This document shows positions 35-12,445 of a stretch of 15,133 bases of DNA, piece after piece. This stretch comes from Promethearchaeota archaeon (GTDB taxonomy: Archaea > Asgardarchaeota > Lokiarchaeia > Sigyniarchaeales > SOKP01). The notes below the pieces were generated by a model. The model had not been told where the DNA came from and searched no databases. It saw only the letters and a list, made by a program, of their open reading frames with translations. Each line of letters starts with the position of its first letter. The first letter of the stretch is position 1. Where the stretch lies: positions 1 to 15,133 of the forward strand of contig JAFGOA010000169.1 in assembly GCA_016926735.1 (NCBI GenBank), read 5' to 3'. A program made the position numbers and the translations under genes.

Positions 35-238
35 ATGGATAAAGAAATAGAAAAGCTAAAAAAATTATTATTACATTGGATAGAGCATAATAATTCTCAT
101 ATTAAATCGTATATAAAATGGAAAAATTATGCACAAGGACGAGAACTCAAAGAAATTGTTGAAAATATGAATAAAGCAATTAAATTATTTGATGAAGGTA
201 ATACATATTTAGCAAAGGCTCATCAGTTGTTAAAATAA
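35..238 (+). CDS. Small helical His-rich protein, putative metal (Ni/Co/Zn) binding
   Basis: 67 aa, ATG start, amphipathic helices with an L-L-H-W-I-E-H-N-N-S-H-x3-Y-x2-W motif. I recall this HWxEHNxxH pattern from small uncharacterised proteins of anaerobes; function is inferred. Confidence 0.65.
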   Translation: MDKEIEKLKKLLLHWIEHNNSHIKSYIKWKNYAQGRELKEIVENMNKAIKLFDEGNTYLAKAHQLLK

Positions 239-279: not shown

Positions 280-1485
280 TTATATAAATAAATTGATCAA
301 TGGTAGTAGTTGTTGACGGAAGTATCCTATTTTTTCATCAATTAATGTTGGATCTTCTAATAAAACCCAGAAATATACAGGAATATTAAGATCAGAATAT
401 TCAAATAATTTCTCACCTTGTATTATAAATCCATTTAGTGGAAGGTCTAATTTTATTGATTTTTCTCGAATTAATCCAATAGAATTATGAAAATTAGAAA
501 GTGTTTGTAAAAGTAAAGCTGTATTATTTATTAACATTTCATCAGTATTAGATGTGAAAAAACTCCCAAAAATTAATCCATCCATTGATATTAGACTGGC
601 TGCTTTTCCACTCACTAATTGAGTAAATTCTTGAAGAATATGTTCTATAATTTCTGATGTATCAGATATTCTCTTTAAAGCTAAACTAAACATTTGCATT
701 ATTGTTTCTTTTTGAAAAATTGTTGTATCATAATAATCAATTTCAAATGTATCAAATTTATTTAAAACAGGATTAAAAGCTTCTTTTATTGCATTTATAT
801 TATTTTGCCATTCGATAGTTTTTCTAAAATCTTGATCACTCTTGTTGAGTACAATTATTATGGGTGCCTTTTCTCCAATTTCTGTTAAAATTTCAAGAAC
901 TTGAGAGAAATACTCTGCTGATTCTTTGAATCTATTTTGATCTTGAACATCAATTACATATAAGATCAAATCAACGTCCGTGAAAAAGATTTCTGGTTTA
1001 TTAAAATAATATTTTTCTCTATATTGAACTTGACCACCCAGATCCCAAGATACAATAGGATAACCAAAAAACTCTAATTTTTCTCTTTTTACACCTTTAG
1101 TTGGTAGTAATGATTTTATAATTGAGAACTTATCCTGCAATACAGATAATATTGAAGTCTTACCTCCATTATCTAAACCAATAAGTAATAGTTTTTTTTG
1201 AGTTTTTAGTTGTTCAGTTACTTTTTTCTCTATTAGTCTTGCAATTTTTATCCATTTTATTATTACAGTTGGTATTGAATCCTTAATCTCAGGAGGATTA
1301 TCTTCATTTAAATGTGCAAGATCTTTAATCGAATTAACACCATGTTTTTTTAAATCCTCTGATGAGACCTGATCAATACCAATTAAAGTATCTGGTTTAA
1401 ATCGTAATATTTCTTCCAAATCAGAAATAATAATATTACTTTTAAATAATTCCTTTATTTTTGCTAAATCATCTTCTAATAACAT
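280..1485 (-). CDS. Rag/Arf-like small GTPase with N-terminal helix-hairpin-helix-like domain and C-terminal Roadblock/longin-like domain
   Basis: G1 GLDNGGKTS (aa103-111), G2 PTKG, G3 WDLGGQ, G4 NKSD, G5 DTTIF (Rag-type TSI[W/Y]). The C-terminus (IEHILQEF...ASLISMDGLIFGSF...TALLLQ) fits a Roadblock fold. The N-terminal LIGIDQVSSEDLKKHGVNSIKDLAHL fits HhH/RadA-N/DUF4332-like motifs. Confidence 0.9.
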   Translation of the reverse strand: MLLEDDLAKIKELFKSNIIISDLEEILRFKPDTLIGIDQVSSEDLKKHGVNSIKDLAHLNEDNPPEIKDSIPTVIIKWIKIARLIEKKVTEQLKTQKKLLLIGLDNGGKTSILSVLQDKFSIIKSLLPTKGVKREKLEFFGYPIVSWDLGGQVQYREKYYFNKPEIFFTDVDLILYVIDVQDQNRFKESAEYFSQVLEILTEIGEKAPIIIVLNKSDQDFRKTIEWQNNINAIKEAFNPVLNKFDTFEIDYYDTTIFQKETIMQMFSLALKRISDTSEIIEHILQEFTQLVSGKAASLISMDGLIFGSFFTSNTDEMLINNTALLLQTLSNFHNSIGLIREKSIKLDLPLNGFIIQGEKLFEYSDLNIPVYFWVLLEDPTLIDEKIGYFRQQLLPLINLFI

Positions 1486-1745
1486 TATTAATCAAAATAA
1501 TAATTATACAATTATATAAATAATATTTAGTATTAAAGATATAATATTTTCTATTTATAGATATATGCCTTTTTAAATTATAAAATATAAAAAAACATTT
1601 TCTAAGGAAGTAAGAGTGAACTTGAATGAAAATTAGAAATTAATAATTCATTAAGAATTTAATAATAATTAAGTAAATAAATAAGAAATATATTAATTTA
1701 TTAAGATTAAAATCTAAGATATCACAAAGACTTAGGTATATTAGT

Positions 1746-2942
1746 GTGTCCAACCGGTATGCAGAAAATATAGTCATTTGTATTGATACTTCACGTTCAA
1801 TGTTTAGAAGTGATTATTCACCTTCTAGATTGGTATCATGTATTTCAGCGATAAAAAAGCTAATTTCAGAAAGATTACGTATTGATCCATCAAGTCAATT
1901 TGCAATTGTTAAATTTTCAAGTAATGCTGAAAAATTACTAGATTTCACTAATATTGAAGAAGATATATTTAAGGTATTTGAATCCTTAGAAATTAAAGGA
2001 ACATCAGCTATAGGTGAAGCTTTAGCTCTTTCGATAAAAATAATTATAGAAGAACTTAGGAAAATAGATGCAAGAATTCATAAAATTCTTTTAATATCTG
2101 ATGGTAATTATAATAAAACTGCAGTAGATCCTTTAAAAATGGCTAGACTTGCACAAGGTCTTAACATAAAAATTGATACTTTTAGAATTTCTAGCGGAGG
2201 AAAAATGAATATTCTGAAACGACTAAGTGATGTTTCGGGTGGGAAATATTATTATAATAATGATGAAATCACACTGATGGATTCAGCTGTTGGTTTTGCT
2301 AATTCAAATATTGGTTCAAATATTGATCTTACAGATAGAGTTCGTAATCCTGCATTTTTGAGAAAAATAGCTGCAAACCTTTTAAGAGTTCAAGATTTAA
2401 CAAAAGATCAAGAACAGAGAATTAAACAAATAAAGGGTATTGCCGATTATAAAAAATGTTCTATTTGCTTTTCAGATAAAGATTTAGTAACAAAAGGATC
2501 TTTTTATTTAACAGGAAGATATTGTCCAAATTGTCAAACCCCTTTTCATATTCATTGTCTTTCTAAGTGGGCAGATTCTTCTGGTGATGCAAAATTAAGA
2601 AGTTCAGGGACTTGCAGATGTCCACATTGTTTTTATCTTTTAAAAATTCCAACTGAAGTTTCACAAGCTCAAAGACTAAAAATATTAACTGAGATGAATA
2701 CCAATCCTGATATCGGTCCAAAACCTATAGAAGTTGTTTCTGCAATAAAAATTAAAGCTTCATTCTTAGGAGATGAAGCATTATATAATTCTTGTCCAGT
2801 TTGTAATATGATATTTGAAGAAAACCAGGAAATTATAAAATGTGGAAAATATAATTGTGGTATATTATATCATATTGATTGTTTTTCAAAATTACATGAT
2901 CATATTTGTAAAAATTGTGGTTCTAAATTAGAGATTAGATAG
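1746..2942 (+). CDS. vWA domain protein with two C4HC3 RING-like zinc fingers (TFIIH p44/Ssl1- and Rpn10-like vWA); putative E3 ligase or scaffold
   Basis: GTG start. MIDAS DTSRS (aa14-18), GTS, ISDG. Finger 1: C238,C241,C260,C263,H268,C271,(W275),C292,C295. Finger 2: C350,C353,C366,C371,H376,C379,C388,C391. Confidence 0.88.
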   Translation: MSNRYAENIVICIDTSRSMFRSDYSPSRLVSCISAIKKLISERLRIDPSSQFAIVKFSSNAEKLLDFTNIEEDIFKVFESLEIKGTSAIGEALALSIKIIIEELRKIDARIHKILLISDGNYNKTAVDPLKMARLAQGLNIKIDTFRISSGGKMNILKRLSDVSGGKYYYNNDEITLMDSAVGFANSNIGSNIDLTDRVRNPAFLRKIAANLLRVQDLTKDQEQRIKQIKGIADYKKCSICFSDKDLVTKGSFYLTGRYCPNCQTPFHIHCLSKWADSSGDAKLRSSGTCRCPHCFYLLKIPTEVSQAQRLKILTEMNTNPDIGPKPIEVVSAIKIKASFLGDEALYNSCPVCNMIFEENQEIIKCGKYNCGILYHIDCFSKLHDHICKNCGSKLEIR

Positions 2943-2949
2943 AGCTTCA

Positions 2950-3873
2950 ATGTTTTTTGAATTTAATATAAGTACACAGCAAGTCAAAATCATGAATGAT
3001 AATTGTTATACTTATGGAGATATTACTTTAGGGAAAGGCAATTTTAATTTACCTCCCGTACTTATAGGAACAATTTTCTATATGGGACAGACAATTATTG
3101 AAAGACAAAATCCCTCCATCTTTAATAAAGAAAAAGCAAAAAAAAGAATAGATTTTCATAAAGAATTAGCATCTAAGTATAACATCCCTGAAATGATTGA
3201 AATATCAGCTGATGATTCAAAATCTATTGTGAAATATCTTGAATTTTATTTGGATAATTATGATCCCCCATTTGTCTTGGGAGGAACATTTGATGCTAGA
3301 GTAAGTGGTATTGAATATTTAAATGAAAGAGGGATTAAACCAGTAGAATATATCTATAATTCTATATCAAATTTAAAAAATTCAAAAGAAATTGAATTAA
3401 TAAGGAAGAATAAAATTGATTCAACTATAATTCTTATTCTAGGAACTAATGAAATGACTTCAAATCAGAAATATAACTATCTTATTAAAAAAGATCCTCT
3501 AAATAAGAATAAAAATTTAATTGAAAACATAAAAGAGTTAGGAGTTAAAAGAATTTGGATTGATGGAGGTGTAATAGATTTAGAAAGTCTAGCTAATACA
3601 TTTGAAAATCATCATTTAGTAAAGAAATCTCTTAATTTGCCTGTAGGTACAGCTCCAAATTTATTTCTTTATAGATATTCATCACCAAGGTTAAATAAAA
3701 AATTCCATACTCGATATAGAAGAGCTAGTATAATGTTCATCTCTACGTGGATTTCAAATTTTATTTTTTATGGAGCTATAGAAGATGCAGTAGAATCTTT
3801 TGCGTCTACATATCAAGCTATTGAGCTCAAAAAAGTTACTCAAAATAAGAATATAAAACTATTTGATTTATAA
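2950..3873 (+). CDS. mtrH: Tetrahydromethanopterin S-methyltransferase subunit H (MtrH/MtgA) family protein, divergent
   Basis: MtrH-family signatures PPVLIGTIFY, FNKEKA, KYLEF, IYNSI, LPVG, FYGAIE. The true start may be the in-frame ATG at 2992. No other mtr genes are in the window. Confidence 0.8.
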   Translation: MFFEFNISTQQVKIMNDNCYTYGDITLGKGNFNLPPVLIGTIFYMGQTIIERQNPSIFNKEKAKKRIDFHKELASKYNIPEMIEISADDSKSIVKYLEFYLDNYDPPFVLGGTFDARVSGIEYLNERGIKPVEYIYNSISNLKNSKEIELIRKNKIDSTIILILGTNEMTSNQKYNYLIKKDPLNKNKNLIENIKELGVKRIWIDGGVIDLESLANTFENHHLVKKSLNLPVGTAPNLFLYRYSSPRLNKKFHTRYRRASIMFISTWISNFIFYGAIEDAVESFASTYQAIELKKVTQNKNIKLFDL

Positions 3874-3975
3874 TAATATCGGTCAATAATTTTAAATATC
3901 AAATTCTTTTTTAGATATACAAGAATATAACACATTAAGATAGATTTATAAAACACCTAAATATTACGACTAAAT

Positions 3976-5100
3976 ATGATAGAAGATCAAGAAGAAAAAA
4001 AAATAGAAGCAGTAAGATTAATTGATCTGGCAGAAGACGCTTTAAATAATGAAAAAGCAAAAGAATCAATAGATCTATATGAGAAAGCTGCCCAGATTTA
4101 CTTAGATATAGGTAGTTATTTTAAAATTGATGAAATATATATAAGAATTGCTTCGATTATTTCACAATTTAAGAATCATATTCAATCAGTTTATCGGTTA
4201 AAATCAATTATTAGAAAAACTGAAAAACTAAAATTAGACGAAATTTCAGCAAAATTATTATTGCAGCTTGGAAATATCTCTTTTAAAATGAAAGATTATG
4301 AAACTGCAGGTGAAGCATGGGAATCAGCATCAAATTATTTTTATAATTTAAATCCAAAAGAATATCATGGATTAGCTTCAGAACTATTATTAAAAGCAGG
4401 TCAAGTTTTAGAAAAGACACATTCTAATAAAAATAAAGGAGAGCAACTCATTTTGAAATCAGTAATGAAAATGAATAGAATTGAAGAATTACTCGAATTA
4501 GAGGAAAAAAGAGGTATTCAATTATTAGAAATGGAAAAATACGAAGGTGCTGCAAATAAATATTTAGAACTTGCAAATTATTTTAAAAAGAGCATTATTG
4601 AATTAGATAAATTAATTAATTTATCTGAAGAAAAGGAGATTATGAAAAATGCTAAAACTCGTTTAATGCATATAACAGCGGAATATGAAACAATTGCTAT
4701 CTTATCTTTAAGAGCTTTAAAAGATAACAATAAAGAAAAAGAAATAAACACTTTAGCAAAAGAAATTATTGATCTTCTGAAAGAGACTGTCTATATTATA
4801 AAAGAAATCTTTAATTCTAAACGGATAGAAATAGATAATGAAGATATAATGAGAATCACTTTTGATGTTTTTTTAATCAGTTTAATACAAAATTTAATAC
4901 TAGAAACAGAAGAAATAAGACCAATTGATTATTTACTTCAAGATTTAGAAAAATCATCTAATATTAAAAAGATTAAAAATACTGCTTTTTATTCTCTAAT
5001 AGAGAGAATTGATAAAGTAGGATTTAAAGAATCTTTAAAAACAATAGAAGAAACCAATTTAGGGCGTATTGATAAAATAAAAAAAATATTAATAATCTAA
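3976..5100 (+). CDS. Alpha-SNAP/TPR-like helical repeat protein
   Basis: All-helical composition with repeated TPR/SNAP-type units: ESIDLYEKAAQIY, KDYETAGEAWESASNYF, LLLKAGQVL, EKYEGAANKYLELANYF. Confidence 0.7.
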   Translation: MIEDQEEKKIEAVRLIDLAEDALNNEKAKESIDLYEKAAQIYLDIGSYFKIDEIYIRIASIISQFKNHIQSVYRLKSIIRKTEKLKLDEISAKLLLQLGNISFKMKDYETAGEAWESASNYFYNLNPKEYHGLASELLLKAGQVLEKTHSNKNKGEQLILKSVMKMNRIEELLELEEKRGIQLLEMEKYEGAANKYLELANYFKKSIIELDKLINLSEEKEIMKNAKTRLMHITAEYETIAILSLRALKDNNKEKEINTLAKEIIDLLKETVYIIKEIFNSKRIEIDNEDIMRITFDVFLISLIQNLILETEEIRPIDYLLQDLEKSSNIKKIKNTAFYSLIERIDKVGFKESLKTIEETNLGRIDKIKKILII

Positions 5101-5101
5101 C

Positions 5102-5281
5102 TTAAATTCTATCCAGTTCTATTATTAAAATCTTTTTTAATTTTTGTATAATTTTTGAAGAGATTAATGATTTTTTTTTTTTTGTCTGATTAATGCTTGA
5201 AAATGGAATTATTATTCGGTTTATATCATTAAAGATATTTATTGGATTTTCTTTCATAATATTCATTTTTATTTCTAGCAT
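5102..5281 (-). CDS. Possible small basic protein (59 aa, not in ORF track)
   Basis: Hand translation MLEIKMNIMKENPINIFNDINRIIIPFSSINQTKKKKSLISSKIIQKLKKILIIELDRI*. No recognisable motif; may be the antisense shadow of the T-rich terminator. Confidence 0.2.
   Translation of the reverse strand: MLEIKMNIMKENPINIFNDINRIIIPFSSINQTKKKKSLISSKIIQKLKKILIIELDRI
5131..5183 (+). terminator. Putative archaeal oligo-T terminator of the vWA-RING/mtrH/TPR run
   Basis: Successive T tracts (T6, T5, T5, then T13 at 5171-5183) 30-80 nt after the stop at 5100. Confidence 0.45.
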
Positions 5282-5415: not shown

Positions 5416-5754
5416 TTACATAAACTTCAATAAGAGTTGGTTATATTTTATGCAACTAATTTTTCTAACCCCATGTTTTCCAGAACTATAATCACATTTT
5501 ATTAATTCTGCTTCCTCAAGAATCTTAATTTGAGCCGATATATTAGCCTCAGTCATGGTTAAATTCGATGCAATTTTAGAAACATCCATAGGTTCAGATT
5601 GAATATGTCTTAGTATATTACGCCTTGTTTTTGAAGATAAGGCTTTTAAAATCAGTTCAATTTTTTCATCAGTTTCAATAACTTTTAAATTTGAATAATT
5701 TTCTAATAAATTAACTTCTAAAATTTCGCTTTCAGTCATTTCGCTAAACTCCAA
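5416..5754 (-). CDS. ArsR/SmtB-family winged helix-turn-helix transcriptional regulator
   Basis: LKALSSKTRRNIL...MDVSKIASNLTMTEANISAQIKILEEAELI wHTH pattern, with wing GKHGVRKIS. The track start is TTG; there is an alternative ATG at 5739. Confidence 0.88.
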   Translation of the reverse strand: MEFSEMTESEILEVNLLENYSNLKVIETDEKIELILKALSSKTRRNILRHIQSEPMDVSKIASNLTMTEANISAQIKILEEAELIKCDYSSGKHGVRKISCIKYNQLLLKFM

Positions 5755-5885
5755 TACATATTCAATAATTACTTAAATTATTTTTATAATACTTACAAGA
5801 TAACTAAGTCATTTTATCCTTTTATATCTTAGGTATAAGTTTTAACGTAATCAAATGTTAGTTTAGTAGTCATATTCATAAATTG

Positions 5886-5899
5886 GTTACATATGTGAC
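5886..5899. promoter_or_regulatory. Candidate operator palindrome GTTACATATGTGAC
   Basis: 14-bp dyad with 6 of 7 pairs matching, relatively GC-rich, about 130 bp upstream of the ArsR-like gene. Confidence 0.3.
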
Positions 5900-6589
5900 A
5901 TTTTAATACAAAAATTTTATTAGTTTTACATATATTGAAAAATATAAATATATGTTTAACAAAAGAATCTAAAATCTATAGTTAAATATAAGAATTATAT
6001 TGAATAATTTTACAATTTCCACTAATGATCCGAGCATAATAGAGGTTTTAGATTCTTTTATTAGAGATTTAGTGTTTTAAGAGGATTTAAAGATAAAAAT
6101 TTAAAGTTAATTAAACAAAAGAAACTATCATTTTTAGTAAAATCTCTTTTTTTAAGAATAGAATAAGTTAGACTATAAAATATTTTTTATATCAAAATTA
6201 ATTATAATGAAATCTCTTGAAACACTTAATAACGTATTAAATCAGTAATATTTGATTTATAACGAATAAAATTTAAATGTACTTTTTTAATTCAATAGTT
6301 TAATTAGTTTGCACTGAAGAGAATTGAATATAATAATCTAAAAGATAAATCAAGATTATTTTATTAATCCATATAAGTTAATAATTAGAAAGAATGAATT
6401 TCTGTTCCTTATCTATAAAAATGAAGTCTAAAAACGAAAATAAAAAGTAATTATTTTTATTCATTGGTTACTTAAATTACAATTAATGAAAATGATTATA
6501 TTAACAACAATTAATATTATAAGATTCTTTAAATAATTTGTTAAATATTAGAATGAAAATATAAGAGAAATAAACGAGAATTAGAAAAA

Positions 6590-7177
6590 ATGAAGAAATC
6601 CTCAAGTATATTAACAGTCCGTATCCATGAAGACCTTGATGAGAATTTAGATAATATTTGTAAAAAAAGGGGGCTTAAAAAAGCGACTGTAGTGAGAGAA
6701 TATTTGGATAAAGCTAAATTCTTTTTAATAGACCATAATTCAATTAAATCGAAGAATGAAAATAATCTAATATTATTAAAAAGAACATATTTTAGAAATA
6801 TTTTAGAAAAAATTGATGAACTTTCTCAAATAGAACTAGGAAGTGAATTGGCCCGTTTCATAAATGATCTTGCTCGATTAGAAGGAAAAATAGATGATAT
6901 ACAATATAAAATTGCTATTTGTGAAGAATATGGATTATTTTCAAAATTTATTGATAAGGAAAATTATATTTTATTCTCTAAAAAATTTGGCCCTCGAAAA
7001 TTTGTTGAAGCTTTTGTATGGATTTTAATATCTAAAGGAGATAAAGGAGATTTTGATAAACAATTTACTCAAGAAGAACTATCAAATAGTAGTAAGTTAA
7101 ATAAAAAATATGAAGAATTAATTCAACCAATTAAAAGAGATTCATCTTATTATGCTTTTGAGTTTGCAAAACTATAA
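6590..7177 (+). CDS. Ribbon-helix-helix (CopG/MetJ/Arc-type) regulator with uncharacterised C-terminal domain
   Basis: N-terminal ILTVRIHEDLDENLDNICKKRGLKKATVVREYLD gives the alternating beta-strand, helix, G-turn, helix pattern; about 150 aa of extra domain follows. Confidence 0.78.
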   Translation: MKKSSSILTVRIHEDLDENLDNICKKRGLKKATVVREYLDKAKFFLIDHNSIKSKNENNLILLKRTYFRNILEKIDELSQIELGSELARFINDLARLEGKIDDIQYKIAICEEYGLFSKFIDKENYILFSKKFGPRKFVEAFVWILISKGDKGDFDKQFTQEELSNSSKLNKKYEELIQPIKRDSSYYAFEFAKL

Positions 7178-7368
7178 TTAACTAATAGTTTTTCAAACTT
7201 AAAATGTTGCCTAAGAAAACATCCTTATTTATGAAGATGGTGAATTGAGTTTTAAAAAAAAAATATTCAGAAGAGACATCTTTTTTTACCTATTTATCCG
7301 GTATTATCGTATTAATTAATTTTGATATTGTTTTAACAGTGATAGGTTGATTGATTCTATAACCAATT

Positions 7369-7408
7369 CTATACTCATAAGAGGGAACGGTCTTTAGAAT
7401 GGGTATAG
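7369..7408. terminator. Stem-loop between convergent genes
   Basis: CTATACTCAT (7369-7378) pairs with ATGGGTATAG (7399-7408), with one G-U on the + strand. Inner AAGA/TCTT helix. It lies next to the maltokinase stop at 7410. Confidence 0.4.
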
Positions 7409-7409
7409 T

Positions 7410-9065
7410 TTATATAGCTAAATATTCTTTAAGACCTAAAAAGGGAATAATTACTTTAGAGGGCCTATATTTAATTTCATAGTTTATTTCATGTAAAATC
7501 CTATCTATGATAAAAAAGTTTATTAATTTATGATCATATTCTGGTGTTTTGATGATTCTGTCAATAAATGAAGACTCCCATAAATTTAGCAATATTAATA
7601 TATTTTTTAATTCTGAATTGATTTTTTTATTATCTACTCCAAAAAAAATATCATGAAGATAATCCTCTGAATTTATAAAATTATCAGTTCTATATCGATT
7701 TTTAATTAGTTCTAATAGAGTATTATATTTAATATAGCTAAAGGATCGTAAAAAAGATGCAATATCTCTCTCTTTTGGGAATTTCTGTTGTTTTTCTTTA
7801 AAATTATAATCAGGATCTCCTTCAAAATCAGTAATATGATAAAGAAATGCCTTATCTTTTTTATAATATAAAATTTGCTCCATATGTAAATCTTGATGAA
7901 TCGCTTGGATTTTAATTTCTATTTTTTCCAAATTAGTACATAATGTTTTGATGGTATATGATATTTCATCTAAAAGATTTTGAATTTCAAGTGGATTTAT
8001 AAAAGGTATTTTATCTTTATTTAAATTGATTTCTGGAATAATTAAAATTAATTTTTGTGAAAAATTTCTCAAGAAATACTCTTTTTCAATAATATCTGAA
8101 GAATATATTCTATTATTATCTGAGATCATTGCTTTATGAAATTGGAGAAATAATTCACAAATTTCATTACTAATATTAATTGAATTAGAACATTTCTTTT
8201 TAATCAATTCCTCAAGAAATAATTTATCATGAAAATCTATAGTGAAACTATCTTTTTTGTCTACAATTGAATAAACTAAATTATTTACCTCATTCCAAAA
8301 GATTTCTCCAATATTTCCTTCATTTTGAATAAAATTCATAAGACTTATAATTGTTTTCCCTTTAAAATTAACTACTGCGTTTATTTTAGGAATATTTAAA
8401 AATTTATTATTAGTTAAAATTTCCAATGTTATTGGTTCTAAATTTTCAGAAAAACCTCTATATGATTTAAAAACATACGAATCAAAAGGAATTGTATTAG
8501 AAGTTAATGTTATTTTAAAGATTAGATTAGTAGTATTACCTTTTCCTAATTGTTGTAGTTCTAATTTAAATTTAGTTTTATCTAATGTTAACAATTGATC
8601 TATTTTTTTTTCTAATTCTTTGTTTTTGTATTCTAAAGATAAATCTTGAAGCTCTTTATAACTATTTTTACAGAAAAATAAATTTTCCCAAAAATTAATT
8701 AAAAATTCTGCTTCTATAATTATGAATTTAAATTCTTCCAGATTTTCATTTTCTGGAAAATTATATTTCATTTCCAGAATATCATCATAATTAACATTGA
8801 TTTCATGTTTATCTTTAAAAAAAGCTAATGGTAAAAAATATTGTTTTTCATAATCAATATTTATAACATTAATTACAGTTAGACATATATTTTCAGTTAA
8901 AAATTCAGAAAAAACCAATGAAATATTAAATTTTAAATTTAATAATTGAGATTTATCTCCAAACCATCTCTTTGAATATAACCAATACTTAAATAATTTA
9001 TTTTGAATTAATTTTTCAATAGTATTCTTGTTAATATATCTAAGAAATGACATAAAAGTTAGCAC
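7410..9065 (-). CDS. mak: Maltokinase (Mak/Pep2 family, APH/kinase-like fold)
   Basis: N-cap WLYSKRWFGDK (canonical WL..QRWF..K), FKSYR, IHQDLHMEQIL (HGDLHLGQVL), TDFEGDP (DFEGEP), RDIASFLRSFSY (RDVAGMLRSF.Y), HEINYEIKYRP...IPFLGL (YE..YE...RP.W..IPL.G). GTG start, alternative ATG at 9053. Confidence 0.88.
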   Translation of the reverse strand: MLTFMSFLRYINKNTIEKLIQNKLFKYWLYSKRWFGDKSQLLNLKFNISLVFSEFLTENICLTVINVINIDYEKQYFLPLAFFKDKHEINVNYDDILEMKYNFPENENLEEFKFIIIEAEFLINFWENLFFCKNSYKELQDLSLEYKNKELEKKIDQLLTLDKTKFKLELQQLGKGNTTNLIFKITLTSNTIPFDSYVFKSYRGFSENLEPITLEILTNNKFLNIPKINAVVNFKGKTIISLMNFIQNEGNIGEIFWNEVNNLVYSIVDKKDSFTIDFHDKLFLEELIKKKCSNSINISNEICELFLQFHKAMISDNNRIYSSDIIEKEYFLRNFSQKLILIIPEINLNKDKIPFINPLEIQNLLDEISYTIKTLCTNLEKIEIKIQAIHQDLHMEQILYYKKDKAFLYHITDFEGDPDYNFKEKQQKFPKERDIASFLRSFSYIKYNTLLELIKNRYRTDNFINSEDYLHDIFFGVDNKKINSELKNILILLNLWESSFIDRIIKTPEYDHKLINFFIIDRILHEINYEIKYRPSKVIIPFLGLKEYLAI

Positions 9066-9121
9066 TTAATGAAAGAATTTTATAAAGATCTTAAGATTTT
9101 GTCGGTTTATTTATTGAGAGA

Positions 9122-10093
9122 TTATTCTTTCCTAAAAAATTTTTTGGATATCATACAAATTTTTAAACTTATCCAATAAATTAGATCCTTATCTTTACTT
9201 TTTAATAATTTAAAATCCCATAAACCACTTTCAATTTGTCTGTTTTTCAATATCTCGATTGCTTTTTGTATATTTGGATATGATATATCAAAATCTAATT
9301 TTACAAGACTATCAAGACTCGAAATGATATCAGTAAACCAAAAAGGAAATGATACTTTAAACCAATAATCTTTTGAACGACGGTCGGGGTATTTATCTGC
9401 AATGAAGAATCTAGAAGCTAATAATTCTCCAGCTTTTTTAGCTTCTTGAGATGTTTTATAATATGGATGAGCTGCAAATGTTCTCAATATAATACCTGTT
9501 ACTAAATGAGAAGAAGGTTTCGTTTTAATTGGTTTGAGAATATTATCGCTATTTTCTGCAGAGAGCCAATCTGCATTATTTGTGCGAATAGGTATAGCCC
9601 AACCACCATCATCATGCCTCAATGAAAGCAACCAGTTAAAAGATTTTTCAATACGAGGATCAGATTCATAACCTGCTTTTATGAGTATTTCTGTAATTCC
9701 AGCTGAATAATTAGGAGAATATTGTTTGCCATAAATTCCTCGAAAATCTCCCTCAGCAGTCTGAAAATTAAATAAAAAATCTGCTGCTTTTTGAATAGCA
9801 ACATTTTTATTATTAAAACCATACTTTTCGACAAGAATTCCCATCTGTCGATATGTTTCTAATTGATTATAGTTTTGCTGTACTTTTTTATTAATATTTT
9901 TTGGAGGATACTCCCAAGAACCATCATTTCTTTGAATTTTAAGAATTGATAGAGCTTCTGGTATATTCCATAATTTTTCTATTGATCCTGCTTCTTTTTC
10001 CAAAATATCTCTATTTAAAAAGTATTTTATAGCGGAATTATTTACAATTTTTAAAGGTTCAATAGGATCGTAATTAAAAATATCTAATAGCAT
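9122..10093 (-). CDS. Prenyltransferase/squalene oxidase (QW) repeat protein, single alpha/alpha barrel
   Basis: Four QW-type repeats: LKIQRNDGSW, FNFQTAEGDF, LSLRHDDGGW, KNRQIESGLW. No DxDD cyclase motif. Confidence 0.8.
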   Translation of the reverse strand: MLLDIFNYDPIEPLKIVNNSAIKYFLNRDILEKEAGSIEKLWNIPEALSILKIQRNDGSWEYPPKNINKKVQQNYNQLETYRQMGILVEKYGFNNKNVAIQKAADFLFNFQTAEGDFRGIYGKQYSPNYSAGITEILIKAGYESDPRIEKSFNWLLSLRHDDGGWAIPIRTNNADWLSAENSDNILKPIKTKPSSHLVTGIILRTFAAHPYYKTSQEAKKAGELLASRFFIADKYPDRRSKDYWFKVSFPFWFTDIISSLDSLVKLDFDISYPNIQKAIEILKNRQIESGLWDFKLLKSKDKDLIYWISLKICMISKKFFRKE

Positions 10094-10223
10094 AATAAAA
10101 TCTTGTTCTTTTCTTATTATAATTTTATTTCGAATAAAATATGTATTTTATTTAAAAATATTTTAAAATATAATGATTTTTTTTAAAATAAATGGATTTT
10201 TTAAATCTGATTAGTTCATTGTA

Positions 10224-10231
10224 TTTATATT
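10224..10231 (+). promoter_or_regulatory. Candidate TATA box for the GH57 gene
   Basis: TTTATATT about 40 nt upstream of the ATG at 10271; weak evidence in such AT-rich DNA. Confidence 0.3.
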
Positions 10232-10270
10232 CTATATTATTTTAGTATATCTTAAAAAGAGATTTTAAAA

Positions 10271-12445
10271 ATGGAACAAGAAAAAAGTATAAATCTGCCA
10301 ATTGTTTTTCATTTTCATCAACCGGTTGGGAATTTTCCATGGGTTATAGAAGACTGTTATAATAAATCATATAAACCATTAATTGAGAATATTTATAACT
10401 ATCCAGATGTTAAAATTACTCTTCATTTTTCAGGAAATTTATTAGAATGGTTTATAAAGGAAAAACCGGATTTAATTGTTAAAATTAAGGAAATGGCTAA
10501 AAGAGGACAAATAGAAATTATAGGGGGAGGTTTTTATGAACCTATTTATGCAATTATTCCAGATAGAGATAAAATTTCTCAAATGAAAAAATTATCAAAG
10601 TTGATAAAACAAGAATTTGGATTAGAAGTAAAGGGTGCATGGCTTTCAGAAAGGGTTTGGGAACCTAATTATCCTTCATTTTTAAGTGAAGTTGGTTTAA
10701 AATATGTTATCGTAGATGATAATCATTTTAGATCAAGTGGTATCACAGAAGAGGATACATTCTATTCTTATATTACCGAAGATAATGGAAAGACAGTAAG
10801 AGTATTTCCTATTAATGAAGAATTACGATATCTTACTCCTTGGAAACCTACATATAAATCTATTGATTATTTAAAGTCTATTGCGGATAATAAAGGTGAT
10901 AGGATGGCTCTTCTAATTTCTGATGCTGAAAAAATGGGAGTTTGGGGATCTACACATGAATTTTGTTATATTGAAGGTAAAGGCCATTATGAAGGGGACA
11001 ATGGAAAGCCTTTTGTTAAAGCTTTTTTTGAACAAATTACTAATAACAAATTCATTAAATCACTAACATTATCAGAATATATGGATAAATATTATGCAAA
11101 AAGTTTAGTATATTTACCCACTGCAACATATGATAAAATGGAAGAATGGGTTTTACCAACAGAGATAAGAAAACGATTCGAGAAAGAAAGAGAATTATTA
11201 AGAGAAGATAAAGAAAAACAAGATTTATATTTATTTTTAAAAGGAGGTTTTTGGAGATATTTTCTTGTAAAATATCCAGAATCAAATAATATGCATAAAA
11301 AAATGTTGTATGTAAGAGATAAACTCATAAATATCGAAAATAAGATTAAAAAAGTTAAAGATAAGAATTTACTTAAGAAAATTGAAAGTAAATTAGATCA
11401 AACATGGGAAGAAATATATAAAAGTCAATGCAATGATGTTTATTGGCATGGACTATTTGGTGGTGTATATATTCAATTTCTAAGATTTTTTATATATTCT
11501 TCATTAATAAATGCTGAAAATATCATTGATGAGATTAGCTCACTATTATTTCCTACCTTAAATTCTTATATAAGTGTTATTCCAATCGATTTTGATAAAA
11601 ATAGTAAAATGAATTTAATTATTGAATCAAATATGCTTAATGTTTACATTGATCCTAATGATGGAGGTACTATTTTTGAATTAGATTATAAACCTAAATC
11701 GTACAATCTTTTAAATACTCTCACAAGATGGAAAGAAGCATATCATGATAAAAAAAAAATTGAAGAAAATATAATATCGATAGATAGATTCAGACGAAGT
11801 TTACTTCGATTAAGATTTATGCATAATGAGGTTTCATTAGAAGACATAGCTTCTGATAATTATTATGAATTTTCTGATTTTATTAATCAGGAATATGTTA
11901 TCACTAAGAATGAAAAGTCTGATAATAGAGCAATAATTTTATTATCAAAAGAAGGAAATCTTAAAGATTCAAAATCTAATAAAGATATAAAATGTAAAAT
12001 AATAAAAGAAATCATTGTACAAAATAACATTATTTCCATAAATATAATGGGAACACTCCTTAATGGATCAGATAAAAAAGATTTAATTCAACAAGTGTGT
12101 AAATATCTTAATATTGGTATTGACATTCCATTTTTCTTTAATGGAAATCCTAAAGAATTTAAATGGGAAAGCAACCAAGTAGATGACAATGAGATTGCCT
12201 CAAATCGTTTTATAGATAATTTTCAATATAAAGGAAATCATTTCAAAGCTTATGATAAGACTTATGATTTTTCGTTAGAAATTAATGTTGATTCTGATTT
12301 AGAACCACGTATCGCTAAATTTCCAATTGTTACAAATACCTATACCGATGAAGGATTTCAATATATTTTTCAAGGTATTAATACAATTCTGATTTTCAAA
12401 TTGAGAGAAAATTTCACAATAAACTTGGAATTGAAAATAAATTGA
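10271..12445 (+). CDS. GH57 4-alpha-glucanotransferase / alpha-amylase (with DUF1925/DUF1926-type C-terminal domains)
   Basis: GH57 regions HFHQPVGNF, GGGFYEPI, WLSERVWEP (nucleophile E127), ISDAEKMGVW (acid/base D218), SQCNDVYWHGLFGGVY. The 91-residue catalytic spacing equals that of the Thermococcus litoralis enzyme (E123/D214). Confidence 0.95.
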   Translation: MEQEKSINLPIVFHFHQPVGNFPWVIEDCYNKSYKPLIENIYNYPDVKITLHFSGNLLEWFIKEKPDLIVKIKEMAKRGQIEIIGGGFYEPIYAIIPDRDKISQMKKLSKLIKQEFGLEVKGAWLSERVWEPNYPSFLSEVGLKYVIVDDNHFRSSGITEEDTFYSYITEDNGKTVRVFPINEELRYLTPWKPTYKSIDYLKSIADNKGDRMALLISDAEKMGVWGSTHEFCYIEGKGHYEGDNGKPFVKAFFEQITNNKFIKSLTLSEYMDKYYAKSLVYLPTATYDKMEEWVLPTEIRKRFEKERELLREDKEKQDLYLFLKGGFWRYFLVKYPESNNMHKKMLYVRDKLINIENKIKKVKDKNLLKKIESKLDQTWEEIYKSQCNDVYWHGLFGGVYIQFLRFFIYSSLINAENIIDEISSLLFPTLNSYISVIPIDFDKNSKMNLIIESNMLNVYIDPNDGGTIFELDYKPKSYNLLNTLTRWKEAYHDKKKIEENIISIDRFRRSLLRLRFMHNEVSLEDIASDNYYEFSDFINQEYVITKNEKSDNRAIILLSKEGNLKDSKSNKDIKCKIIKEIIVQNNIISINIMGTLLNGSDKKDLIQQVCKYLNIGIDIPFFFNGNPKEFKWESNQVDDNEIASNRFIDNFQYKGNHFKAYDKTYDFSLEINVDSDLEPRIAKFPIVTNTYTDEGFQYIFQGINTILIFKLRENFTINLELKIN

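Follow-up and report, generated by a model that had tools for sequence, protein, structure and literature searches.

The window analysed here is the entire 15,133 bp contig JAFGOA010000169.1 (C220) of the Lokiarchaeia assembly GCA_016926735.1 (G000), a genome of 3.88 Mb with ~24% G+C and an estimated completeness of 99%. In this window, a gene for a Rag-like GTPase (280..1485, minus strand, 401 aa) lies beside a gene for a protein that combines a von Willebrand factor A (vWA) domain with two RING-type zinc fingers (vWA-RING; 1746..2942, plus strand, 398 aa, GTG start), and further on is a gene for an all-alpha, TPR-like (tetratricopeptide repeat) solenoid protein (3976..5100, plus strand, 374 aa). 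These three genes are a conserved unit, linked across three families of the order Sigyniarchaeales. Between the vWA-RING and TPR genes stands a fourth gene (2950..3873, plus strand) for an MtrH-like TIM-barrel protein, which is an insertion specific to the window's family and falls outside the conserved core. The unit is tentatively read as a Rag-like switch that is joined with a RING ligase and with a proteasome-linked TPR adaptor, with the MtrH-like protein probably a non-catalytic add-on in the window's own family; judged from the sequences, this reading has a probability of roughly 40%.

The evidence for the unit comes from related families of the order. The window's family is called f1 here, f2 and f3 are sister families, and f4 is another family of the same order. 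In f2 and f3 the orthologues of the core genes are 25–42% identical to those of the window. Among the 11 genomes of these families that were examined for the distance between the two genes, the GTPase gene (32–37% identity) is within 2.5 kb of the vWA-RING gene (34–42%) in nine (G025, G026, G028, G030, G032, G035, G038, G040 and G178). The TPR gene is within 5 kb of the vWA-RING gene in eight genomes (G025, G026, G028, G030, G032, G037, G038 and G040) and directly beside it in G026, G030 and G037; in G034 and G039 a TPR gene and a vWA-RING fragment share one contig, by coordinates. The other window genes have not stayed with them, as none of these eight was matched in the 16 loci sampled outside f1. 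The arrangement is thus in part beyond chance: GTPase and vWA-RING genes are again found as a pair, with a TPR gene nearby, in genomes where all other neighbours have changed. In f2, the gene for a proteasome alpha subunit (psmA) is found where f1 has the MtrH-like gene, and psmA and the genes for TPR, vWA-RING and GTPase are close together in several differing local orders. Three f2 genomes that consist of a single contig (G032, G038 and G178) yielded no homologue of MtrH.

Within f1, 80 loci were fetched around vWA-RING relatives that are 55–98% identical. GTPase (minus), vWA-RING (plus), MtrH-like (plus) and TPR (plus) genes follow each other in this order in 62/80, and the 18 others are cut by the end of the locus. 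The same loci also keep the upstream small ORF (open reading frame) and the genes for an ArsR-type regulator, a ribbon-helix-helix (RHH) protein, a maltokinase-like protein and a GH57 enzyme in order, which makes a block of at least nine genes. Since the whole neighbourhood is collinear, the four-gene order in f1 is uninformative. There are insertions of 2.7 kb between GTPase and vWA-RING genes (L098) and of 5.5 kb between vWA-RING and MtrH-like genes (L126), and the MtrH-like and TPR genes are adjacent throughout the f1 loci. In one genus of f1, g8 (G010, G020, G170 and G185), GTPase and vWA-RING genes are kept and there is neither an MtrH-like orthologue nor a TPR gene, and in G193 and G158 all four genes are missing.

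The vWA-RING family itself is specific to the order. In a census with a family profile (E ≤ 1e-15, genomes at least 80% complete) it was found in 49/49 sampled genomes of the order and in 0/151 sampled genomes from 23 other families of the phylum, and a single-sequence search agrees. An earlier, sequence-only reading of this DNA had proposed that all four genes form one signalling module, with synteny across Loki, Hel, Thor and Heimdall genomes as the check. The wide synteny is refuted: because the vWA-RING family is found in 0/151 genomes outside the order, an Asgard-wide four-gene synteny cannot exist. The module itself survives in reduced form, as GTPase, vWA-RING and TPR genes are linked in f1, f2 and f3, and the MtrH-like gene drops out of it, being present only in f1 and absent from g8.

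As a description of the locus, the same sequence-only reading was accurate. The four genes, their domains, the co-orientation of three of them and the gaps of 260, 7/49 and 102 bp all match the coordinates and the Pfam scan, and the identification of a Rag-like GTPase, of vWA and RING content and of a seemingly repurposed MtrH-like protein is borne out by the protein analyses below. The divergent intergenic region between GTPase and vWA-RING genes, read from the sequence, covers 260 bp (1486..1745). An alignment of three genomes of the genus shows two conserved blocks in it, with conservation only within the genus, and because these three genomes are too close for such a comparison, a function of the blocks is not demonstrable. 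The vWA-RING stop is followed by the MtrH-like ORF after 7 bp, or after 49 bp if translation begins at Met15 (position 2992), which leaves a protein of 293 aa. The Met15 start is favoured, as it is used by the database gene calls (293 aa) and the orthologue alignments begin there. The gap from MtrH-like to TPR gene is 102 bp. A run of 13 T (5172..5184, plus strand), read directly, stands 72 bp 3' of the TPR stop and is a possible archaeal terminator for the co-oriented genes.

The GTPase is Rag-like in its sequence and in its predicted fold. Pfam assigns it to Gtr1_RagA with 87 bits (1.7e-24; cut-off 22), and Arf is nearly equal at 80 bits (1.7e-22). The protein consists of an N-terminal helical domain (aa 1–90), a G domain (aa 96–271) and a roadblock-type C-terminal domain (aa 275–400). 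The motifs GLDNGGKTS, T129, DLGGQ and NKSD are invariant in 37 orthologues, and G1 to G4 are intact, with G103, G108, K109, S111, T129, D148, G150, G151, Q152, K215 and D217 all invariant in this set. An AlphaFold2 (AF2) model based on the 37 orthologues has a mean pLDDT (predicted local distance difference test) of 83.5 and shows a C-terminal domain of alpha-beta-beta-alpha-beta-beta-beta-alpha order. Foldseek finds LokiRagO (8yl2, E 4e-20) as the best match to the model, followed by RagA/RagC and Gtr1/Gtr2 (1e-14 to 1e-16 for RagA/C and Gtr1), and the alignments of ~300 columns each span both the G and the roadblock domain. By sequence, the nearest solved relatives are the Lokiarchaeota Rag-like GTPases 8yl2 (E 1.9e-35) and 8zla, and the window's GTPase is only 28% identical to 8yl2. 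With LokiRagO and LokiRagM (8yl2; 8zla, 9m28), RagA/C and Gtr1/2 it has in common a G domain that is followed by a roadblock C-terminal domain, but it has in addition a conserved N-terminal helical domain of ~90 aa, for which Pfam gives no significant match. Unlike in the case of eukaryotic Rag, there is no Ragulator or TORC1 context around the gene; a roadblock-only gene is not found in the window either. A literature search for 8YL2, 8ZLA, 9M28 or the LokiRag names found no relevant paper.

It is worth noting that in one f3 genome (G026, L044:7424-9622) two tandem Rag-like GTPase genes lie beside the vWA-RING gene, one a 393-aa orthologue and the other a 304-aa paralogue that lacks the N-terminal domain. 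By analogy, this arrangement is reminiscent of a heterodimer pair. On the other side of the window's GTPase gene, a 67-aa ORF (up67; 35-238, plus strand) without a family match stands tail to tail with it, as in most f1 loci, with 37–59% identity.

The vWA-RING protein has a vWA domain with a metal-ion-dependent adhesion site (MIDAS) at aa 8–176 (nt 1767–2273), a first C4HC3 finger at aa 238–295 (nt 2457–2630) and a second at aa 350–391 (nt 2793–2918). The vWA domain is recognised by Pfam as VWA_2 with 58 bits (1.7e-15; cut-off 27), with an additional match to Ssl1 (1.8e-7). Invariance was assessed in 17 sequences. The MIDAS motif DxSxS (D14, S16, S18) is invariant, as are the ligands of the first finger (C238, C241, C260, C263, H268, C271, C292 and C295) and, of the second finger, C350, C353, C366, C371, H376, C388 and C391; here the sixth ligand is not invariant. 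The fingers follow the patterns C-x2-C-x18-C-x2-C-x4-H-x2-C-x20-C-x2-C and C-x2-C-x12-C-x4-C-x4-H-x2-C-x8-C-x2-C, so that both show eight cross-brace zinc ligands with the spacing of RING or PHD fingers, and in the first an almost invariant W275 gives H-x2-C-x3-W. PHD_NSD, at 23.7 bits, stays just under its cut-off of 23.9. From the fingers we infer a ubiquitin-ligase-like protein.

When the family profile is compared with the PDB, Rpn10 (1.8e-16) scores better than TFIIH p44 (3e-13), and the Arkadia RING gives a weak match (0.008). In subtype, the vWA domain agrees with those of Rpn10 and TFIIH p44/Ssl1, and in p44, too, zinc fingers come after the vWA domain. However, the p44 match is confined to the vWA part (query positions 9–175 in the PDB profile search), and the fingers of the vWA-RING protein are both C4HC3, the first with H-x2-C-x3-W, which sets it apart from Rpn10 and p44. 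Rpn10, unlike the vWA-RING protein, has ubiquitin-interacting motifs and no RING. The source genome has two UQ_con genes for E2 enzymes above the Pfam cut-off, on contigs C108 and C237. It also contains a vWA-RING paralogue (C32, ~30% identity), and genes for a GTPase, a TPR protein or MtrH are absent from the 6 kb around it. A further, distant vWA-type gene (~25% identity to the vWA-RING protein) is located beyond the GTPase gene in some f1 genomes (L026:8946-9914 in G006, L031:17-457 in G012, and L079:5299-6267).

The TPR protein is harder to place by family. Pfam matches are to SNAP (7.4e-5, 22.8 bits, under the cut-off of 25) and TPR_12, and its closest Atlas clusters are archaeal SNAP/TPR proteins. 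The AF2 model (mean pLDDT 88.4) contains only helices, arranged as a solenoid. With this model, Foldseek returns generic TPR matches alone (TM-score ~0.3), and VIA-align gives Z 17 for the TPR of LGN/Pins over the N-terminal half (aa 1–170) and Z 13.1 for gamma-SNAP, which is level with many TPR proteins. The gene is single copy in 72/81 genomes of the order. A hint of function comes from f2, where psmA adjoins the TPR gene in all 8 loci that have one, in five genera and in several orientations, even in G178, where TPR and vWA-RING genes are 16 kb apart. Examples of such TPR/psmA pairs are L056:3959-5996, L043:9029-11040, L048:4142-6022, L055:104-1990 and L149:934-2840. Judging from this neighbourhood, the TPR protein may be associated with the proteasome. 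A complex prediction for TPR and MtrH-like proteins gave a score of 0.01 and a mark of 0.32, values that weigh neither for nor against binding.

The MtrH-like protein belongs to the same Pfam family (MtrH, 120 bits, 1.5e-34; cut-off 22.8) as MtgA of Desulfitobacterium hafniense and the MtrH of the methanogen Mtr complex. It matches MtgA at E 2.3e-27 and is below the NCBIfam cut-offs, with 176 bits for NF002142 (cut-off 287) and 98.9 for the equivalog TIGR01114 (cut-off 271.4). The active-site account in PMC7154762 describes that in MtgA Ser32, Asp75, Asp102, Asn129 and Asp194 hold the pterin and Asn227 contacts N5, and that the D102A exchange abolishes activity. These residues were mapped by a HMMER alignment to MtgA and by a MAFFT alignment, both at sequence level and at ~25% identity. 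In the HMMER alignment, Ser32 corresponds to Thr, Asp75 to Glu, Asn129 to Asn and Asp194 to Asp in the MtrH-like protein, so that these positions are kept or conservatively changed. By contrast, Asp102 corresponds to Gly (Gly111, nt 3280–3282), and Ser226-Asn227 to Asn-Leu. Across 17 orthologues, the catalytic Asp is Gly (VLGG) in 17/17, whereas the second MtrH gene of the genome has LVDG, on which the MAFFT alignment agrees. The Asp is kept in this second MtrH and in three solved relatives, MtgA (6sj8, 6sjp), 8z9u_B and MtrH of the Mtr complex (9qtp_o). The position of MtgA Asn227 is Leu, and the residue before it is Asn in most orthologues and Thr or Gly in 4/17. All or almost all orthologues preserve the four pterin-contact positions (Thr, Glu, Asn, Asp).

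As the catalytic Asp is lost, the MtrH-like protein is probably a non-catalytic subunit. The gene does not look like a decaying one: the fetched loci contain 74 distinct copies that are free of stop codons and covered to at least 85%, and the proteins are 57–78% identical across f1, on par with their neighbours. It is likely that the gene is maintained under selection and that canonical methyl transfer has been lost, and from the retained positions the protein may still bind a pterin-like ligand. It is a candidate pseudoenzyme in itself. Unlike in the MtgA and MtrH systems, no gene for a corrinoid protein is near it among the ORFs of the window; B12-binding and MT1-type domains are absent from all 12. 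In the homologue search, all matches listed were orthologues of at least 61% identity, with no outgroup among them, and the MtrH family overall is widespread (138/201 genomes).

The second, canonical MtrH gene of the genome (C197:7128-8126, plus strand), in which the Asp is kept, is found in a setting of its own. It is tail to tail, at a distance of 7 bp, with a gene for a 500-aa Rag-like GTPase (8134-9636, minus strand), and the region C197:1-20000 (L147) is rich in small GTPases. These include further Rag-like GTPases at 15514-16461 and 18760-19998, of which the second has an N-terminus resembling folliculin, as well as a GTPase of the Ras family at 1587-2633, interspersed with genes for ACT-domain proteins, homoserine dehydrogenase and threonine synthase. 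The pairing of canonical MtrH and Rag-like GTPase is repeated in G170 and G193 and, by coordinates, in G158 and G010. Outside f1, a Rag-like GTPase gene was within 4 kb of an MtrH gene in 1/20 loci (12 genomes), and because the pairing is this rare there, it is not counted as support. A general tie between MtrH and Rag-like GTPases is rejected, as the pairing recurs in f1 and not beyond. Directly upstream of the canonical paralogue is a gene for a 482-aa protein with no Pfam match (L147:5522-6970; L155:5004-5627). Its position is kept in the f2 genome G030, so this protein may be the true functional partner of canonical MtrH.

If the Rag-like switch, the RING protein and the TPR protein do work together, the nucleotide state of the GTPase would set where or when the RING protein acts. 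The RING protein, together with the genome's own E2 enzymes, would ubiquitylate targets, and the TPR protein would be an adaptor to substrates or to the proteasome. The MtrH-like protein, which travels with the TPR gene, would be a subunit that is probably non-catalytic and possibly binds a ligand. Here we infer interaction from gene neighbourhood, just as ligase activity is taken from zinc fingers. Several observations weigh against this coupling. The GTPase and RING genes are divergent and not co-transcribed, and the curated RING models are below their Pfam cut-offs on the vWA-RING protein (zf-RING_2 with 18–20 bits against 27.3, Prok-RING_1 with 18.6–20 against 29.1). In G036 and G037 no GTPase gene was found within the 2.4 kb of available flank, and in G178 the TPR and vWA-RING genes stand 16 kb from each other. 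In f4, the 6 kb around the GTPase orthologues (34–37% identity; G027, G029 and G033) are devoid of vWA-RING, TPR and psmA genes, and the vWA-RING-like genes there have neither a GTPase nor a TPR neighbour. As for the MtrH-like gene, its position in f1 is no better kept than those of the ArsR, RHH, maltokinase-like and GH57 genes, a TPR match is absent within 4.9 kb of it in G021, and one deletion that removed both neighbours at once may explain why g8 lacks the MtrH-like gene together with the TPR gene.

Some of these observations would be expected if common descent is all that keeps the genes side by side, the four proteins acting in unrelated processes and the MtrH-like protein being an enzyme of metabolism that has changed its chemistry or its substrate and is here by coincidence. 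The collinear f1 block from up67 to GH57 deprives the four-gene synteny of any special weight, the linkage is missing in f4, and the distant TPR gene of G178 fits as well. In addition, passages of two studies (10.1101/2020.10.19.343400; PMC10933270) indicate that most Asgard genes for eukaryotic signature proteins (ESPs) and GTPases are outside conserved neighbourhoods. But simple inheritance of a neighbourhood does not readily account for a core trio that is still together in f2 and f3 at 25–42% identity when all eight other window genes are gone, nor for psmA, TPR, vWA-RING and GTPase genes that remain close despite the varied orders in f2. The loss of the Asp that is essential in MtgA, and the lack of a corrinoid-protein domain in the window, also do not suit a working metabolic enzyme. 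Shared descent alone is therefore considered unlikely as the full explanation, although it is a serious competitor.

A function in transcription or repair would follow if the vWA-RING protein were a factor of the TFIIH p44/Ssl1 type and the N-terminal domain of the GTPase bound DNA. The Ssl1 match in Pfam, the p44 chains found by the family profile and the resemblance to p44 in having a vWA domain and then two zinc fingers speak for such a nucleic-acid module. However, p44 is outscored by Rpn10, the gene next door in f2 encodes a proteasome subunit, Pfam has nothing significant for the N-terminal domain of the GTPase, and XPB, XPD and other repair genes or domains are not found among the 12 ORFs of the window. 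This makes the idea improbable.

The sequence-only reading had suggested, as a speculation, a module that senses pterins or one-carbon units. In it, the MtrH-like protein would be a sensor comparable to SAMTOR, and RING and TPR proteins would relay its signal to the Rag-like GTPase. A sensor of this kind could well have lost the equivalents of Asp102 and Asn227 and retained the four pterin-contact positions, could be as conserved as its neighbours, and could always stand beside the TPR gene in f1, as is observed. Yet the gene is absent from the f2/f3 neighbourhood, with no homologue at all in the three single-contig genomes named above, g8 keeps GTPase and vWA-RING genes without it, the residue mapping comes from alignments of ~25% identity, and in other families MtrH loci are hardly ever near a Rag-like GTPase gene (at most 4 kb; 1/20). 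The sensor is thus very improbable as proposed and survives, at low probability, only as an f1-specific add-on. The fullest version would have the Rag-like GTPase control a vWA-RING ligase that feeds the proteasome via the TPR protein, with the dead MtrH of f1 recruited to the adaptor as a sensor of pterin or one-carbon status. If true, this would be a prokaryotic counterpart to the logic of nutrient sensor, RING complex and Rag GTPase in eukaryotic TORC1 signalling, and it has, if anything, a slimmer chance still. For an anti-virus or conflict system built from the GTPase and the vWA protein there is a weak DO-GTPase2 match in Pfam (E 0.0059, below the cut-off), and vWA and GTPase proteins co-occur in published conflict systems. 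Such a system is scarcely credible, as PADLOC gave 0 matches for the four proteins, and a gene found in 49/49 sampled genomes of the order at a positionally stable locus is unlike variable defence islands.

The preferred coupling of a Rag-like switch with a RING ligase has parallels in eukaryotes. Rag GTPases are linked there to RING proteins in two ways, through the RING subunits of GATOR2 and through RNF152, which acts on RagA. In both cases, a Rag-family switch is tied to RING ligases, and the likeness to the present locus is an analogy of logic only: the vWA-RING-RING protein has no homology to these beyond the RING class, and the archaeal pairing is one of gene neighbourhood.

In Asgard archaea, the roles of Rab and Rag proteins are stated to be unknown in a passage of PMC10933270, where it is added that GTPase genes as a rule do not share an operon with regulators. 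The sections of 10.1101/2020.10.19.343400 on ESP neighbourhoods describe few conserved ones, none of them the present locus. One of these is an operon in which a LAMTOR1-like roadblock protein is encoded together with a Rab-like GTPase and a DENN protein, and which is reported there in most Asgard archaea. As far as these sections go, it is, like the present locus, one of the few conserved small-GTPase neighbourhoods in Asgard archaea. The present locus differs in that it has another GTPase family and other partners, is found in part of one order and contains proteins of the ubiquitin/proteasome type. In the literature searched, no paper was found that brings Asgard archaea or Lokiarchaea together with vWA (von Willebrand) domains, RING fingers and either ubiquitin or GTPases, and supplementary tables of Asgard gene-cluster papers may list these families. 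The main text of PMC12962969 has no passage on RING, vWA, Rag, GATOR or TFIIH.

Asgard archaea encode many Rag-like GTPases, and for one of them the locus offers concrete candidate partners that are open to expression and testing, namely vWA-RING and TPR proteins and, in f2, a proteasome subunit. If the link is real, the coupling of a Rag-type switch to a ubiquitin ligase would predate eukaryotes.

The remaining part of the window that is conserved in f1 (5416-12445) contains genes for the ArsR-type regulator, a 195-aa RHH protein whose N-terminus weakly resembles aCcr1, a 551-aa protein that is maltokinase-like at its C-terminus, a 323-aa protein with squalene-cyclase repeats, and an enzyme similar to GH57 4-alpha-glucanotransferases. 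This region is probably a cluster for alpha-glucan metabolism.

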